Assembly: GCA_965223265.1 (NCBI GenBank)
Contig: OZ244999.1
Coordinates: 7,520,001-7,584,000 of the forward strand
DNA: 64,000 nucleotides
From: Planctomycetota bacterium
Lineage (GTDB): Bacteria > Planctomycetota > UBA8108 > SXIK01
Direction: 5' to 3'
The translations under genes and the position numbers were made by a program. The notes beneath the pieces were generated by a model that saw only the letters and a program-made list of their open reading frames with translations, had not been told where the DNA came from and did no database searches. Shown here piece by piece: positions 1,659 to 50,772 of the stretch. Each line of letters opens with the position of its first letter. Within the stretch, counting starts at the first letter, position 1.

Positions 1659-2774
1659 TTAGTCGAGCGCCAGGTTCGAAGCCTTCAGAACCGTCTCCTG
1701 CACAGCGTCGTCATGGTCGTACGAGTACCGAAACTCGGCCTCACCCCGGATCGCCCGGGCGAGTTCGGCAGCGTCTCCCACATAGCGCCGATACGGCGGA
1801 AAACGCACGTCCTGATAACCCTTGGTGTACTGACCGCGCGGGCCGGCGAGAGCCAGGCGTACAGCCGGCCGGTCGAGAGGCTCGATGTGGATCGTCCCTT
1901 CGGTCCCACAAAGAACGAAGTGGCGCCGTGCAAAGCCCTCGACCTCCTGCGCACTCGACTTGATGCTGGCGATGGCCTTCGGATATTCACAAACGGCCAG
2001 CATGTTGTCGTTGAGATTGTCATCGCGCTGTGAAGCATGCCGCACGAACGGAGTCACGTTTGTCGGTCGACCAAGGACACCGACGACGAGATCGATGATG
2101 TGACAACCGAGCTCGAACATCATGCCGCCAGGATAGGTCGCGAGCTCCTGCCGTGAGGCGTTGCCCACGACCTTACTCATCACCGTGTGAATCTCGAACG
2201 GCTCCCCGAGCCAGCCTTTGGCGAGAAGTTCGTGCATGAGCACAACGCCTGGGTTGTACCGATACATGTAACCCATCTGTACGAGAAGCTTCTTCGCCTT
2301 CGCTTTGGCTACGATGCGACGGAAATGGGGCAATGAGGATCCCGCGGGTTTGTCGAGGTGAATGTGCATCCCCGCATCGATACACGCCTGCGCGTTGTCG
2401 AGCAGGTCGCGCACCTTCGTCTCCACCGCGACGAGCTGCAGGCCAGGGACATTCAGAAGCTCATCCCGCGACATCCACGGTACTCCGGAGTAAGTCTTCG
2501 AGCTCTCGGCGCGCTTCTTGAGTTCCGAATCGGGTTCGACCACGCCCACCACTTCGTACTCTGGCGACTCCCTATAGACGGCCATCTTCCCGGCAGCATG
2601 GCCGTGACCAACGCCGATCTGGCCGACCTTAATCCTCTCCCGCTGCACACCACCCAGCAGACGAGCCCCAAGTCCCGTCGCCACACTCACCGAGGCCGAC
2701 TTCCTGAGGAACGAACGTCTTGAGACGGTGGCTGAACCAAGACTGCTAACGCTTTCAGAACCAAAGTGCTGCAT
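1659..2774 (-). CDS. Gfo/Idh/MocA family oxidoreductase with Tat signal
   Basis: SRRSFL twin-arginine motif, Rossmann KVGQIGVGHGHA, HIHLDKP, QMGYMYRYNP and GGMMFELGCHIID. Confidence 0.9.
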   Translation of the reverse strand: MQHFGSESVSSLGSATVSRRSFLRKSASVSVATGLGARLLGGVQRERIKVGQIGVGHGHAAGKMAVYRESPEYEVVGVVEPDSELKKRAESSKTYSGVPWMSRDELLNVPGLQLVAVETKVRDLLDNAQACIDAGMHIHLDKPAGSSLPHFRRIVAKAKAKKLLVQMGYMYRYNPGVVLMHELLAKGWLGEPFEIHTVMSKVVGNASRQELATYPGGMMFELGCHIIDLVVGVLGRPTNVTPFVRHASQRDDNLNDNMLAVCEYPKAIASIKSSAQEVEGFARRHFVLCGTEGTIHIEPLDRPAVRLALAGPRGQYTKGYQDVRFPPYRRYVGDAAELARAIRGEAEFRYSYDHDDAVQETVLKASNLALD

Positions 2775-3081
2775 GATCTCCCCCGGACGCTGGTAGTTGG
2801 TCGTGTGGTTGAGCTAGTTCGCCGACTCGGCAGCTTCGTTCGGTTCTGTAGGCCATCCGTGCGACAGATTCGCGCGAGATACGCCTACGGGTCGCCCACG
2901 GGGCGACGCGTGGCGCTATGCGCTGCGAAACTTCGTCCGTGCCGAACGATTTGCAACTCGCATGGTTAGACGTTTCACTGCCACCCCGACGTTTGGCGCA
3001 AAAACCGAAGTTTAGCTGGAACCCATCGAACCGACTGACGTAGCTTATTATGCCGCACCAACCAAAACCGGTCGAAGCAAA

Positions 3082-3915
3082 ATGAAGCTCTATAGAACTC
3101 GCCAGAGCCCCCTCCTCGCAGTTCAGAATCGTTTTTTCTCCGTCGATGACGTCTCCTGGGACGAACTCTTCGCGATGGACGATCCTGGTTTGCACCTGCG
3201 CAACTACGTCTCGCGCAAGCCTCTCGATGAGAACTTCGAACTGCGAACGATCGAGCTCTTGGCACCGATCGTTTCGCAGGAGGTGTGGGCGGCAGGAGTC
3301 ACCTACTACCGCAGCCGTGACGCCCGCATGGCAGAGTCGAGCGAAGCCGGTGGGAGCGACTTCTACGACCGCGTCTACGACGCACCGCGCCCGGAGCTCT
3401 TTTTCAAGGCGTCGGCGCATCGCGTCGTGGGCCCAGGTTCGTCGGTTCGCGTCCGAAGCGACTCCAAGTGGAACGTTCCTGAACCTGAGCTGACGCTGGC
3501 GATCACGCGGGCCGGACACATCTTCGGTTACACGATCGGCAACGACATGAGCTCCCGTGACATCGAAGGGGAAAACCCGCTGTATCTGCCGCAGGCGAAG
3601 GTCTACGATCGCAGCTGTGCGCTCGGCCCGTGCATTCTCATCACCCAACAACCACTACCGAAAACGACGGAGATCCGACTCGAGATCCGGCGTCAAGGTG
3701 AGAAGGCGTTCGCCGGATCGACGACTCTCGCGCAGCTGAAGCGCGAGCCGCAAGAGCTCGTCGACTACCTGATGCGCGATAACAGCTTCCCACACGGGTG
3801 TTTTCTTATGACGGGCACCGGCATCGTGCCGGACGATCGTTTCTCTCTGGAGCCAAGTGACGAAATCCGCATCGAGATCGATCCAATTGGACGCTTGACC
3901 AATCGCGTCAAGTAG
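3082..3915 (+). CDS. Fumarylacetoacetate hydrolase family protein (2-keto-3-deoxypentonate dehydratase, XylX/KdxD-like)
   Basis: [52 protein letters not shown] and MTGTGIVP. Lies directly upstream of a KGSA dehydrogenase-like gene. Confidence 0.85.
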
Positions 3916-45004: not shown

Positions 45005-45213
45005 CAGCACGCCGTGAGCGAGGTTTGCCCGCCATCTGTTCGCAGGGGAGGGGCGGACACCGCGCCAAGGGCCGAGGCGAACCCGTCGGTCGTGGGTCTC
45101 GTTCCAGAATCCGCGCGGATTGTTGTCTGCGCCGGCGACCACCAGTCGTTCAAGCGAGGTGCGGTGCAATCGTGCTGCTTTCGCCCCACACGTCGCGAGA
45201 GAGGTCGTCCGAC

Positions 45214-46971
45214 ATGAAGAGTCACGCCATCCGAAGCCGGCAAACGGTTCTGGCCTTGGGCCTTCTTCTGCTGCTTTCCCACAAGTCTTCGAACGCAGCC
45301 GAGATTTCCTGGAGCGGCGGCACAGGGAGCGATTGGAACGTCGCCTCCAACTGGCTCCCATTCTTCGACGGCGAGAGAATCGTCCAACGTGTGCCTGGTG
45401 ACGGCGACATTGCTTCTCTCGTCGCGTCGCGGACCAGCGGCAGCGCGGCCCTGTCGTCGGACGCCCAACGCCTCGGCGGTCTCCGGGTTGGCGGCGGGAT
45501 GATGCTCCGCACGAACGGCTTCCAAATGGGCGTCGTCGGGGAGCCGCGGCGCAGCACTGTAGTCAACGGCGAACGTTCGGTGATCGTCGTGACACCGGTC
45601 GCAGACGCCCCCAAACGCGCCGCTCTCACGACCGATTTCCTGTCTGTTGCTGCCGCCGGACACGTTCAAATGGCAGAAGGTGTCTTGACGGTCAACGTAG
45701 GAGCGACACTGAGCGCGCAAGGATCGCTCAGCGGCTCTGGAAACGTTCAGTTCCTGAACACTCCGGGGCGCCCGGAGTCTGTAGTCCTGACGAACGATGG
45801 CAGCATCGCGCTCGATCGGTCGCGATTGGTTCTCAGTGCACCGGCTGGCGGCAAGTTCGACCTCGACGGCAGCAGCGAAGACGGCGCCATCGTCGTTGGA
45901 CCCAGCTCTCAGCTGGCGGTACTCGGTCGGCTGTCAGAGCCCTTCGGGGGCCGGATCGAGGTCAGCACATCGAGCACCCTCGAACTCTCAGACGCTCTTG
46001 AGCTCGAAGATGCCGGGCGACTCTTCATGCACGGTGGAATCGCGCTCAACTTCGTCGGTCGCATCGTCGCCCCAGAGGTCGCTATCTACGGCCAGATGCA
46101 CGTCAACGGCGCCGGGATCTTTGAATCTGACGTCTACTTTGCACCTCTCTCCACAACCGAACTCGCGGACAGTCGAGAGTACGGCACCACTCTCAACCTC
46201 TTCGGGAGTAAGAGCACGATCGCCGCGCGTGCTCGGTTCACCGGTCACGGAAAGCTCCTTGTCGACCGAGGCGGCAGGCTCCACCTCGAGAGTGGTGCGC
46301 AGGTCGATGTCGCCGTCAACGTGAAACACGCCTTGATGACGCTCGAGGGCGGCGCCGCCATTCGCGACGAGTATCGTCAACACAGAACCGGGTCGCTGCA
46401 GGTCGACGTCGGCGGCACCGAGCCGGGAACGCACGATCACCTGTTAGTGAAGGGAGACGCCATTCTCGACGGCACGCTCATCGTAGAGCTCGAAAAGTCG
46501 TATATCCCAAACCGTGGCCATACGTTCGAAGTTCTCCAGGCCGAGGGCTCAGTCAAAGGCACGTTCGCCTCTGTCGATGCGCCCGAACTCCCAGATGACC
46601 TCGGATGGAGGGTCGTATACAACGCAGACGATGTGCATCTGATGGTTGTCGACAGCGTTGACACGGAACGCGGACTCGTCCGCATTGGTGATTGCAATCA
46701 AGACGGCGACCTCGACGTCTCTGACCCGATTTGTACCTTGCTTCACCTCTTCGGGGGCGGTGGCAAAGAGCTGCCGTGCGGTGACGGCACTGCGAGCGAC
46801 AATAGCAACGTGCTCCTTCTCGACGTCAACGACGACGACGCACTCGACCTATCAGACGCCATCTACGTTCTTGGCTACTTGTTCGCTGACGGACCAGAAC
46901 CCGCCGGAGGAGTGAATTGCATTCGGGTCGAGGGCTGCACCTCGACCTGCTCGTTCACGGAACCTGAGTAG
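45214..46971 (+). CDS. Secreted beta-helix/autotransporter-passenger-like protein with C-terminal paired Ca-binding (dockerin-like) domain
   Basis: Signal peptide, W.GG...DWN.ASNW, Gly-rich beta repeats, D.L.V.G.A.LDGTL, and C-terminal GDCNQDGDLDVSD...DVNDDDALDLSDAIY.L.YLF..GPEP. GAGAGG RBS. Confidence 0.8.
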   Translation: MKSHAIRSRQTVLALGLLLLLSHKSSNAAEISWSGGTGSDWNVASNWLPFFDGERIVQRVPGDGDIASLVASRTSGSAALSSDAQRLGGLRVGGGMMLRTNGFQMGVVGEPRRSTVVNGERSVIVVTPVADAPKRAALTTDFLSVAAAGHVQMAEGVLTVNVGATLSAQGSLSGSGNVQFLNTPGRPESVVLTNDGSIALDRSRLVLSAPAGGKFDLDGSSEDGAIVVGPSSQLAVLGRLSEPFGGRIEVSTSSTLELSDALELEDAGRLFMHGGIALNFVGRIVAPEVAIYGQMHVNGAGIFESDVYFAPLSTTELADSREYGTTLNLFGSKSTIAARARFTGHGKLLVDRGGRLHLESGAQVDVAVNVKHALMTLEGGAAIRDEYRQHRTGSLQVDVGGTEPGTHDHLLVKGDAILDGTLIVELEKSYIPNRGHTFEVLQAEGSVKGTFASVDAPELPDDLGWRVVYNADDVHLMVVDSVDTERGLVRIGDCNQDGDLDVSDPICTLLHLFGGGGKELPCGDGTASDNSNVLLLDVNDDDALDLSDAIYVLGYLFADGPEPAGGVNCIRVEGCTSTCSFTEPE

Positions 46972-47041: not shown

Positions 47042-47596
47042 TCACAACGCGTGACTGAGCAGTTCCATAAACGCCCGCAAGACCGGCGTGTTGTCTTCCC
47101 AGCCGCGCCCGGTCACCAAGAGTCCGTCGACGACACAGGGTTCATCGACGTACTTCGCGCCCCCTTGCTCCGCGTCCAGCGCACATTTGGGCACAGTCGT
47201 CACCGTGCGGCCGCGGATGCAATCCGCCGCCGACAGGATCTCGATGCCGTGACAGAGCGCAGCAACCGGCTTCGCTGCCTCGAAGAAGTGACGCGTGATC
47301 CGCAACAAGTCCTCATCGTAGCGGAGATACTCGGGAGCCCGACCGCCCGAAACGAACATTCCCACGAACTCCGTCGGGTCCACGTCGCGAAACGCTGCGG
47401 TCGCCGTCAGGTGGTACCCGAGACGTTCCCGCGTGATATCCCACCCATCGGGTTTCTGATGCATTGCCATCTGGTAGGTGCGCGCTTCGGGTCCGGCGAC
47501 GACGAGCTCGAATCCATCTTCGGGAATACGAAAGTAAGCGATCATCGTGTCGAGCACTTCAGTCGCATCACCGATGGGCATCAATACCTTTGGCAT
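47042..47596 (-). CDS. DJ-1/PfpI family protein
   Basis: GD.TE, SGGRAPEYLR, ALCHG (nucleophile Cys) and VVDG.LVT. Confidence 0.9.
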   Translation of the reverse strand: MPKVLMPIGDATEVLDTMIAYFRIPEDGFELVVAGPEARTYQMAMHQKPDGWDITRERLGYHLTATAAFRDVDPTEFVGMFVSGGRAPEYLRYDEDLLRITRHFFEAAKPVAALCHGIEILSAADCIRGRTVTTVPKCALDAEQGGAKYVDEPCVVDGLLVTGRGWEDNTPVLRAFMELLSHAL

Positions 47597-48205: not shown

Positions 48206-49834
48206 TCAAGAATCTTTCGTCTGCTCTGGCTCTGCTGTGGAACGGGGCTCGTCGTTATAAAACGGCAGCACCCATTCGCGAGCGTCGCCGCCCTCGGTCG
48301 CCCGCTCGAAATGAAGACGCACCTTCTTCTCGACTATATCGTTGTTGAGATATGGTAGCCCAAGACAGTTCCAGAGTCGCTGCGCCGTCGCACCAGTGGG
48401 ACGTCGACAAAAAGTGGAAAACTCATCGCAGCGCCCGTCAAGGAAGTCGATGAGATCGTTCGCCCAGTAGACTTCGTTTGGTGTACACGACGGTCTCTCG
48501 GCGGTGAACTGCAGTCGTGCGAACGAGCAGACGAAATCCGCTTCCTCATGGTTGGTGGAGTGACCAAAGCGTATGCGGATGCGGTATTCGCCGCCACCTG
48601 CAGCTAGCAGGTGTTCAATCGGAGGATTTCGCGCACCGACGAGATGAGGCAAGAAACGATGGTTCAGACAGTCCGAGATGCGCTGGCGCTGCTCGGCAAC
48701 GCTACGCTGCGAGTCGTCGAGCGGCGCGTCGGGGAATCTCTCGAAGAGCGAAAGGTCGATATCGAACTCCCTCTCCTCCTCGCGATCACGTATGTCGAAC
48801 CATGTGCACGTCTGCTCAGAGACGATGTCGCCAGCCGCAAGCTCGTAGCAAACACCAGGAACGAACGCTTCGGTTCTATGCTCACACCCCCACTGCATCG
48901 CGACCTCCCGCTCAATCGTGACGCGGTCCTGCACGCGGATGGGAAACAGGACGCGGTTCCACGCCGGGTCAACCTCCTGCGGGAAGCAGATGCCCTGCCC
49001 GCCGATCAGTCGAACGACGCGCGGGTCGCGCCACAGGTCGAGCAGAGGTTCCGGCGGGGGACCCAAGTCGTCCAGTAGACCCACGTCATCGTCGTCATCG
49101 AGGGCTTCCAGAAAGTCGCGCGCTTCGTCGTTGTCACCGTCGAGCGGCGCGTACGCATCGTGAACGTCGTCGTACACCGCTTCGATGCAGGCGTCTAATC
49201 GTTGCCGCCGCTCGTCATGGCTCTGCGCCGCCAGCATCGACATGGTCGCCCCGCCCTCGTTCAGTGTGGTCAGAAAACAGACCGTCGAGGGGTCGTCAGC
49301 GAGAAACTTCTTGGAGAGCTCGACGCGGACTTCCGGGTGATAGAACGGCAAGACAGCGTCGGCTTCGTTGACGAACGTCTCCCGCTCGCCGCGTACAACA
49401 AGCACCATTACATCGTCTTCGTTCGTTGCCGCGGTTTCGGGGTTGAAGAAACCTTCAAGCACCAGTCCGCTCAAGTCGTAGGTTTCGCCTTCACGGAGAT
49501 ACGTGATGGAGACGCCTCGGAGGAATTCTCGCATCGTGCGGTCCAAGAAACGGAGGCTTTCCGGAAGCACGAGACGAGGCCGCGTTTCGAGCTCGCGCCA
49601 AAGACGCGCCAACGTGTAGGGGTCAAGGTGGTCGGTGTGGGCATGCGACACGAAGATCGCGTCGAGCGGCTCGAACGCAGGCGCATCATAGCGCAGGCGC
49701 GGGAACCGGCCTTGAAGATCGCCAACGATGTAATCGGAAAGCCAAGGATCGCCAAGAAGGCGCACCGGCTCAGCGCGCGCCGTTGTTTCCATCTCCAGAA
49801 GAAACGCACTATGACCGAGCGACGTGACTTTCAT
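48206..49834 (-). CDS. Metallo-beta-lactamase fold hydrolase with long uncharacterised C-terminal region
   Basis: LGHSAFL, DPWL and SHAHTDHLD (HxHxDH). Its start overlaps the upstream stop (ATGA at 49834-49831). Confidence 0.82.
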   Translation of the reverse strand: MKVTSLGHSAFLLEMETTARAEPVRLLGDPWLSDYIVGDLQGRFPRLRYDAPAFEPLDAIFVSHAHTDHLDPYTLARLWRELETRPRLVLPESLRFLDRTMREFLRGVSITYLREGETYDLSGLVLEGFFNPETAATNEDDVMVLVVRGERETFVNEADAVLPFYHPEVRVELSKKFLADDPSTVCFLTTLNEGGATMSMLAAQSHDERRQRLDACIEAVYDDVHDAYAPLDGDNDEARDFLEALDDDDDVGLLDDLGPPPEPLLDLWRDPRVVRLIGGQGICFPQEVDPAWNRVLFPIRVQDRVTIEREVAMQWGCEHRTEAFVPGVCYELAAGDIVSEQTCTWFDIRDREEEREFDIDLSLFERFPDAPLDDSQRSVAEQRQRISDCLNHRFLPHLVGARNPPIEHLLAAGGGEYRIRIRFGHSTNHEEADFVCSFARLQFTAERPSCTPNEVYWANDLIDFLDGRCDEFSTFCRRPTGATAQRLWNCLGLPYLNNDIVEKKVRLHFERATEGGDAREWVLPFYNDEPRSTAEPEQTKDS

Positions 49835-50397
49835 GTAACTCCAGAGTGTGGCCGCGGGCAGTACGCTCCGCGACTGTAGTTCTCGCTGTCGAGCCCAAAT
49901 CCGCGATTAAACCGCGCGCGGTAGTTCTCCCAAGCAACCATCGCGGTCAACTCAACCAGCTGCGCTTCGTCGAACGTCTTCCAAAGCTCCGCGAAGAGCA
50001 CATCATCAACGTCAGCCGGCGTATCGGTCATGGCATCCGCGTATCGCAGACAAACCTTTTCGACGGACGAGAAAACCTCGCTGTGCTCATAGTCCCCAAG
50101 CGCCTCGAGCGCCTCGGTCGTCAATCCCTGTTCTCTGCCCACGGCAGAACCGATGTCGATTCAGAAAAGACATCCAACGCGCATCGCCACCCGGACTTGC
50201 AAAAGGCTCTTCAACTTCGGATCGAGCCGCTGGGCGCCCGTCAGAGCGGTCTCCATCTCAGCGAATCCCTTCAAAACTCTCGGGTGGTGCGCCGCGATGC
50301 GAACACTTGCGGGGACGGTACCAAACTTCCGGCGCAACGCCCAATACACAATCCGCGCAAACACATTCCGTGCCGGGGAACCTTGAATGCGAGCCAT
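49831..50397 (-). CDS. AhpD/carboxymuconolactone decarboxylase family protein with in-frame UGA (CxxU), candidate selenoprotein, 188 aa
   Basis: ORFs 50161-50397 and 49831-50142 are in one frame (567 nt). The junction reads GGA TGT CTT TTC TGA ATC GAC ATC GGT TCT = G-C-L-F-U-I-D-I-G-S. Downstream come F...E...L.YA..MT, F.E.QLVELT..VAWEN.RARFN. Confidence 0.85.
50130..50150 (-). promoter_or_regulatory. Candidate bacterial SECIS-like hairpin
   Basis: GTTCTGCC-GTG-GGCAGAGAAC starts 11 nt after the UGA. It forms an 8-bp stem with a 2-nt bulge and a small apical loop starting with G. Confidence 0.5.
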
Positions 50398-50772
50398 CGT
50401 TTACCTCTGTCAACGATCCTGCCGAGCTCGACTCCCTCGCTCGCCCACGCGAGCCGAGGGATCTGTCCATGTGATCAGATTCCAAGAATGGTAGGGCGTC
50501 AGAGGGGGAGAGAACAAGTCTGGCCTGCTCATCTACTGCGGTCGTCTAGCGCCCCCCAGCTACCGAGAAGGATCAAGAACACGAGTGGCGTCGTCAACCA
50601 GCATCACCGATCGTAGTCCATCATGATCATCCGGACGAGCGAGTACTCACGAACGTTCCCACCGACCCGCTGAGCCGCCCCGATACCTCGCCGCGGGTCG
50701 ACGTGCTCGAACGTGGCGGAGAGTAGTGCCCAGCCTCTACCGGTAGCGATCGAGGCTCGCTACCATGGCGTC

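Follow-up and report, generated by a model that had tools for sequence, protein, structure and literature searches.

A predicted selenoprotein of the AhpD/CMD fold with a conserved in-frame UGA and a covarying downstream hairpin in a planctomycete genome

Here, we report a gene for a probable selenoprotein in a bacterium of the phylum Planctomycetota (GTDB lineage Bacteria; Planctomycetota; UBA8108; SXIK01). The gene lies on the minus strand, at 50397-49831, of a stretch of 64,000 nucleotides (nt) that spans positions 7,520,001 to 7,584,000 of contig OZ244999.1 in GenBank assembly GCA_965223265.1; this whole stretch is referred to as the window, and positions are given in its numbering unless another contig or locus is named. 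It is very probably one intact gene, in which the UGA at codon 79 is decoded as selenocysteine (Sec, U) within a thiol/selenol oxidoreductase of the AhpD/CMD fold. The TGA is conserved among homologues, an RNA structure immediately downstream of it is conserved as well, the host genome carries the machinery for Sec and the protein has the fold of the superfamily. A first-pass annotation, made from the letters of the window alone, had already taken the UGA for a Sec codon and not for the mark of a pseudogene, and that proposal is now supported by TGA/Cys conservation, hairpin covariation, the Sec machinery and contigs assembled from four sequencing runs.

The gene has 188 sense codons in one frame, with a single interruption by the TGA at 50163-50161, which is the sole TGA inside the frame; there are no other stops and no frameshifts. 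Under translation table 11 the frame falls into two same-frame open reading frames (ORFs) on the minus strand, one of 78 amino acids (50161-50397) and one of 103 amino acids that starts at an internal GTG (49831-50142). Reading the TGA as U yields the uninterrupted segment V-G-C-L-F-U-I-D-I-G-S-A-V-G-R with U as residue 79, and the N-terminus of the protein, MARIxG, agrees with the family consensus. The coordinates, the frame and the motif G-C-L-F-U-I-D-I-G-S put forward in the first-pass annotation were correct when the sequence was re-read, and so was its remark that gene callers would split the gene in two. A sequencing or assembly error, with TGT, TGC or TGG as the true codon, has nothing specific in its favour beyond the fact that single-base errors occur in long-read assemblies. 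Logan contigs from four public runs span 49800-50450 and agree with the assembly at every letter, without indels, although these runs come from two samples of one study, from which the assembly itself may also derive, and are not fully independent. Homologues moreover carry the same TGA, and an error of this kind is vanishingly improbable.

Conservation of the codon was followed both in proteins and in DNA. A protein database search gave 871 homologues at E≤0.001, the best 120 of which were aligned together with the window protein (121 rows, with C written for U in the latter). Column 79 of this alignment holds Cys in 87 rows, the window protein included, Trp in 25, Gly in 3, Ser in 2 and Leu in 1; the remaining three rows are short database entries that consist of C-terminal halves and start at the residue right after the column. 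At the DNA level we compared 160 homologous loci, namely the best 80 of 589 confirmed metagenome stretches and the best 80 of 578 confirmed genome stretches, using a motif search pattern that left the residue at the Sec position free. One locus gave no motif match and another (L118) contains two tandem copies, which brings the number of motif occurrences to 160. The codon at the Sec position is TGA in 159 of these, TCA in one (L163) and TGG in none. Within the phylum, a scan of 401 genomes at E≤1e-20 found 22 genomes with a match and 23 matching places, 20 of which contain exactly one TGA and three none. Judging by record titles, the TGA forms belong mostly to Acidobacteriota and also to Planctomycetota/Phycisphaerae, Nannocystaceae, Entotheonella, Verrucomicrobiia and Dormiibacterota. 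An in-frame UGA thus alternates at column 79 with Cys, which is the residue of full-length homologues at a greater distance, as the first reading of the gene would have it, and the coding sequence is conserved on both sides, with invariant residues that include H37 and E49 upstream and V148, E149 and L150 downstream. In a quick tree the Cys and TGA-type labels are clustered, requiring 5 changes compared with 28.3 in shuffles, but with several switches needed all the same; the window protein stands beside the TGA-type forms on a long branch (0.68) and in no well-supported clade.

Two of the loci deserve separate mention. The tandem TGA-containing copies of L118, at 2501-3070 and about 3170-3740 (found also as L185/L205, on G042:C13), come from a groundwater planctomycete genome, and one of them has D-I-N-S in place of D-I-G-S. 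The sole sense codon at the Sec position among the 160 loci, a TCA for Ser at position 2705 of L163, belongs to a gene whose product is 100% identical to a database protein (P0015). The hairpin, UCUGCC-GUC-GGCAGA, is still complete in this gene, which is what a recent loss of Sec would leave, and the gene may be an inactive copy or one of altered function.

The RNA structure that follows the UGA is the second line of evidence. We took 147 distinct segments of 57 nt, each beginning one codon upstream of the TGA and ending 17 codons downstream, which align without gaps. RNAalifold finds one helix in them, columns 18-23 with 29-34, and with the addition of an extra C-G pair this is the hairpin at 50149-50133 of the window. 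Its first paired base is the 12th nucleotide after the UGA, leaving a spacer of 11 nt. The start 11 nt downstream and the GTG loop had been foreseen in the first-pass annotation, while the arms of 8 and 10 nt with a bulge that it drew are replaced by a clean helix of 6-7 base pairs. The four inner pairs of the stem are invariant or nearly so. Ser84 is encoded by UCU in 153 of 154 distinct genes, compared with 159 of 1950 Ser codons (8.2%) in the remainder of these frames, and Arg88 by AGA or AGG in 153 of 154, compared with 361 of 2707 Arg codons (13.3%), both backgrounds being counted from stop to stop and thus taking in a few codons upstream of the true starts. Because UCU at Ser84 and AGR at Arg88 are fixed and are rare elsewhere, the conservation of the inner pairs is not forced by the protein, and the hairpin is kept at the level of RNA.

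The helix is closed by columns 18 and 34, which are the wobble position of the Gly83 codon and the first position of codon 89. This pair covaries, being U-A in 46 of the 147 sequences, C-G in 37, G-C in 32 and U-G in 3. For the nine-pair structure the covariation score is 0.125, compared with 0.052±0.004 in shuffles and reached by none of 500, and 76.2% of cells are paired compared with 35-44% when the 3' partners are slid. Three divergent members from the same phylum show compensatory changes at pair 21-31, which is G-C in L187 (UCG...CGG) and C-G in L194 and L196 (UCC...GGA). The apical loop is GUG or N-GUN-N, and 90% of rows or more keep G25, as is also true of U26. Among the 31 homologues in which another residue than Cys fills column 79, 27 have Val (GUN) as the loop codon, compared with only 6 of the 86 Cys forms, which favour Leu or Ile. 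Folded alone, the window hairpin has an energy of -8.8 kcal/mol (z-score -2.1; 5 of 200 shuffles are as stable). The Sec insertion sequence (SECIS) of Escherichia coli fdhF follows a spacing rule of 11 nt and is contacted through GU. In bacterial SECIS elements as described in an earlier survey (PMC1088965), a stem-loop immediately 3' of the UGA carries a small apical loop that includes G, and the window hairpin has this position and this kind of loop.

The same hairpin bears on the idea of a split protein, in which a 78-residue N-terminal half and a 103-residue C-terminal half, restarted at the GTG at 50142 (codon 86), would be made separately and then assemble. An in-frame GTG seven codons after the TGA is available for such a restart, and the three database entries that begin right after the codon are C-terminal halves of just this sort. 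Halves that start next to the TGA are, on the other hand, what is expected of gene callers that take the first available start. The break would also fall inside the C-x-x-C/U active-site turn, with loss of the second redox residue, and the conserved hairpin would span the proposed restart; we regard a split protein as extremely unlikely.

The host is equipped to insert Sec. Its genome (9.18 Mb, one contig) contains selA (548.1 bits), selB (324.1 bits), selD (308.8 bits) and a tRNA-Sec (selC, 70.3 bits; anticodon tca according to ARAGORN), all above curated cut-offs, so that the complete machinery on which the first interpretation of the gene depended is present. Among phylum genomes with the TGA form, selA is over its cut-off in 10 of 10. 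The selD of the host is part of an ORF of 767 amino acids (G000:C1:3459482-3461785; L001 244-2547) with the domains Pyr_redox_2, AIRS and AIRS_C, in which a pyridine-nucleotide-disulphide-oxidoreductase domain is fused to the N-terminus of SelD; this matches the Ndh-SelD fusion type that appears in passages of the selenoproteome paper on the Global Ocean Sampling (GOS) data (PMC2398784). Two further genes with an in-frame TGA were seen. The first encodes an FdhA-like molybdopterin oxidoreductase (G000:C1:8398239-8401976; L206) with the TGA in N-C-S-R-A-U-H-A-P-T-V; it scores 149.3 bits with TIGR01553, under the cut-off of the model, and the 3' end of the locus enters an (ACA/CAG)n-like Thr-Gln/Thr-Arg repeat. 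The second is another AhpD-like selenoprotein candidate, of 190 amino acids (G000:C1:8525179-8525751; L207 480-1052, plus strand), with the TGA as codon 89 in G-C-H-Y-U-L-V-A-H and 168.7 bits with TIGR01926 (cut-off 81.8). A putative CCUCC-GGUC-GGAGG hairpin follows its TGA, as seen by eye.

With the machinery in place, a translation of the UGA as Trp, Cys or Gly, by reassignment of the code or by read-through independent of a SECIS, can be weighed. It draws on the database homologues, 25 of 121 of which are printed with W at the position and three with G. In the best-matching locus of each of the 25 W proteins, however, the codon aligned with column 79 is a TGA; the closest five proteins are 91-96% identical to their locus, and exact matches to a fetched locus were found for 0 of the 25. 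Together with the lack of TGG in the 160 motif occurrences, the printed W would most simply be the translation of TGA as W by a gene caller. The window gene itself ends at a TGA, and the one at codon 79 is the only one inside the frame. A dedicated tRNA-Sec with selA, selB and selD is present, and a conserved hairpin at the SECIS position would have no role under simple reassignment. Decoding as an amino acid other than Sec is very unlikely.

Several observations weigh against decoding of the UGA as Sec, in addition to the stop-to-stop count of the codon background described above. No RNA run was among the public runs found to hold the stretch. In the alignment, 29 of the 147 sequences are unpaired at the covarying closing pair 18-34, and the outer pairs 16-36 and 17-35 are mostly unpaired. 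The 67 nt after the UGA, folded whole, are no more stable than shuffles (z-score +0.37), and the minimum-energy fold given for them by ViennaRNA is a competing hairpin that spans the UGA and pairs alignment columns 5-10 with 15-20. Rfam matched nothing in the window at gathering thresholds, nor anything at E≤10 on 50080-50200. The 5 phylum genomes examined in which the gene is a Cys form or missing all contain selA as well, and its presence is therefore necessary and not discriminating. Finally, a search of the 40 nearest relatives at E≤1e-10 was negative for 39 of them, the one match being a distant homologue of 32% identity, and because of this the gene is patchily distributed in the lineage of the window. 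The competing hairpin was rejected as a structure in its own right: it pairs in 87.5% of cells without covariation (290 and 383 of 500 shuffles reach the observed values) and is probably a by-product of conserved codons. The support for the SECIS hairpin therefore comes from the comparison of homologues and not from folding energy.

The absence from close relatives, which would make the gene dispensable in the lineage, and the two short ORFs obtained under table 11 are also what a pseudogene would offer, that is, a dead gene in which a Cys codon (TGT or TGC) has mutated to TGA and from which a fragment of 78 residues, or nothing useful, is made. The same TGA nevertheless recurs in several phyla, at 159 of the 160 motif occurrences, further stops and frameshifts are absent and the residues past the TGA are still conserved. 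In this frame the stop of the gene overlaps the ATG of the next gene, and the hairpin is held by codon choice. On the sequences compared, conservation effectively refutes a pseudogene, which we consider exceedingly improbable.

The protein belongs to the AhpD/CMD superfamily at the level of domain and fold. It scores 36.7 bits with the Pfam CMD model PF02627 (cut-off 23), above the gathering threshold, and an AlphaFold2 model built from an alignment of 84 rows is all-helical with a mean predicted local distance difference test score of 93.2 and a predicted template modelling (TM) score of 0.89. A helix of the model begins at residue 77, and C76 and U79 are therefore predicted to lie at a helix N-terminus. 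Foldseek matches the model to AhpD/CMD structures with a probability of 1.00 and TM values of 0.66-0.83, among them PA0269, Bmp8, Mlr4105, 'peroxidase-related proteins' and the AhpD of Deinococcus radiodurans and Streptococcus pneumoniae. A profile search of PDB sequences gave Atu0492 (2.8e-19), PA0269 (2.2e-18) and Bmp8 (1.8e-16, over 155 positions), and the CxxC of all three aligns to C76/U79.

At the level of families the assignment is less direct. The best NCBIfam model, NF053654, aligns residues 1-172 with profile positions 1-174 of 179 (E 3e-40) at 137.9 bits, compared with a cut-off of 310, and TIGR01926 (32 bits, cut-off 81.8) and ahpD_dom (22.7 bits, cut-off 27.8) also remain below their thresholds. 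The protein is not a member of AhpD proper: TIGR00777 gave no match at E≤0.01, U79-I-D-I-G83 stands where PA0269 has C-V-N-M-H, and no ahpC was seen among the neighbours of the gene. The 'AhpD/CMD' label of the first-pass annotation accordingly holds for fold and superfamily and does not extend to the families covered by the AhpD-specific and (seleno)protein NCBIfam models, and the residue at +4 is Gly. The His four residues after the second Cys is part of the proton relay of AhpD. In the present family D81 and G83 are invariant (U-x-D-x-G), and the PA0269 chains 2ijc, 2o4d and 7xw1 have His at +4. C180, near the C-terminus, is nearly invariant: 82 of the 86 Cys forms have it, as do 27 of the 31 homologues in which another residue than Cys fills column 79.

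Selenoproteins of this general kind have been described before. Passages of the Sargasso Sea study of 2005 report AhpD-like (COG2128), CMD-domain and 'distant AhpD' CxxU selenoproteins, with 27 AhpD-like sequences (PMC1088965). For the GOS data, 299 selenoproteins are given as AhpD-like 1 and 70 as AhpD-like 2 (pfam02627) (PMC2398784). AhpD-like and CMD-like selenoproteins are also listed in sections of a review of 2026 (PMC13188914) and in entries of BSepDB, and are treated in parts of two further sources (PMC1794560, PMC13326102). The CxxU selenoproteins of Zhang, Gladyshev and co-workers resemble the window protein in their CMD/AhpD-type domain, in having Sec as the second redox residue of CxxU, in the wide occurrence of Cys homologues and in a small-loop SECIS with G; their families are defined by COG2128, PF02627, TIGR01926, NF041238 and NF041047, of which the window protein passes only PF02627. 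The 'YciW-related (seleno)protein' NF053654 (GroundWater_YciW) can be aligned from end to end, and its description includes the (seleno)protein form. The window protein falls under the cut-off of this model, and so do all 13 further proteins tried (10 clade members and 3 Cys homologues), at 82-142 bits; judged by these scores, the clade is a sister of NF053654 and not a member. TIGR01926, which the 2026 review lists as 'AhpD-like protein, CxxU', shares the length of about 180-190 amino acids, the fold (TM about 0.8 to 2oyo, 2pfx and 2prr) and the place of CxxC/U, whereas the true member of that family in the host has GCHYU with His at +4, compared with U-I-D-I-G in the window protein.

Of the relatives that match over the full length, have a structure in the PDB and have an enzymatic function on record, Bmp8 (PDB 6ohi/6ohj) comes closest (Foldseek TM 0.76-0.79). 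The two are only 18-19% identical, Bmp8 has Cys where Sec is predicted in the window protein, and no halogenation genes were seen beside the window gene. The AhpD of Mycobacterium tuberculosis (1knc, 1gu9) shares the all-helical fold and a CxxC at a helix N-terminus for disulfide exchange; the match to it is weak, however, with a Foldseek TM of 0.50 and E of 0.24. The second Cys of this AhpD is the nucleophile. According to passages of a review, Bmp8 is a tetrabromopyrrole debrominase for which dehalogenation by oxidation of cysteine to a disulfide has been proposed (PMC5577590).

From sequence comparison and the structural model we infer insertion of Sec at codon 79 and a redox chemistry that would run as follows. 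The mRNA hairpin at 50149-50133, through G-U in its loop, would bind SelB carrying Sec-tRNA(Sec), and SelB would deliver selenocysteine to the ribosome at the UGA of codon 79, at which translation would not stop. The second UGA, at 49833-49831, is without such a hairpin and would terminate. In the finished protein, and in the manner of the CxxC pair of AhpD-type proteins, the selenolate of U79 would attack a substrate or partner in its oxidised form. C76 would then resolve the adduct to a selenenylsulfide, to be recycled by a cellular reductant. A bolder proposal, which we think unlikely, is that the C-P/L-F-U-I-D-I-G-S-A-V-G-R clade which is common in soil Acidobacteriota, constitutes a distinct selenoenzyme family with a role other than AhpC recycling, and that it could be a reductase that depends on Sec and acts on a small electrophile, such as a deiodinase-like reductive dehalogenase. 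Such a role is pointed to by the invariance of Asp (+2) and Gly (+4), by C180 as a third, nearly invariant Cys and by the place of Bmp8 as the nearest of the full-length relatives that have both a solved structure and a described enzymatic function.

Table 1. Position of the selenoprotein gene, its signals and its neighbours in the window
Feature	Coordinates	Strand	Remarks
AhpD/CMD-fold selenoprotein (predicted), coding sequence, 188 aa	49831..50397	-	ATG 50397-50395; Sec codon 79; terminator TGA 49833-49831
In-frame UGA, predicted U79, second position of C76-x-x-U79	50161..50163	-	TGA conserved in homologues
Possible Shine-Dalgarno GAGG	50404..50407	-	6 nt before the ATG; putative, read from the sequence
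SECIS hairpin (predicted), stem UUCUGCC/GGCAGAG	50133..50149	-	7 base pairs, one of them U.G; apical loop GUG; covariation, fixed codons
ORF of 542 aa with metallo-beta-lactamase-fold domain	48206..49834	-	Lactamase_B_3 27.3 bits (cut-off 24)
DJ-1/PfpI protein	47042-47596	-	downstream of the 542-aa ORF

The nearest neighbour of the selenoprotein gene is the ORF of 542 amino acids, the ATG of which (49834-49832) overlaps the terminator TGA by 4 nt as ATGA (49834-49831); because of this overlap of stop and start, translational coupling of the two is suggested. The metallo-beta-lactamase-fold domain of its product is N-terminal (Lactamase_B_2 scores 24.8 bits, under its cut-off of 27) and is followed by a long uncharacterised C-terminal part. 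Other neighbours in the window are a TIM-barrel protein (289 amino acids) and an SSF transporter (640 amino acids), and an ORF of 648 amino acids on the plus strand (45025-46971) has no Pfam match at E≤1e-4. Searches of the 160 homologous loci by tblastn with the 542-residue, the TIM-barrel and the SSF proteins gave no match. Clustering of the flanking ORFs produced small groups only, the largest of them an upstream amino-acid permease in 27 of 136 upstream ORFs. A conserved partner gene or operon was thus rejected, as these three neighbours were not found in the homologous loci and no large flanking cluster was formed.

Published accounts of AhpD-like and CMD-like CxxU selenoproteins go back to 2005, the window gene belongs to this known kind, and it leaves the understanding of selenocysteine decoding unchanged. 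What is new is modest: a clade, widespread in Acidobacteriota and Planctomycetota and set apart by the cut-offs of models, of which the window protein and the 10 members tested fall below the NF053654 cut-off. The main value of the finding lies in annotation, since public protein sets split the genes of this clade or print W at the active site. A profile of the clade combined with its regular SECIS (UCUGC-loop-GCAGA) would recover these genes, which were found in hundreds of metagenome stretches from soil and groundwater. For the organism itself, the gene adds one predicted thiol/selenol oxidoreductase to a genome that also holds an FdhA-like gene, a second AhpD-like gene with an in-frame TGA and an oxidoreductase-SelD fusion.

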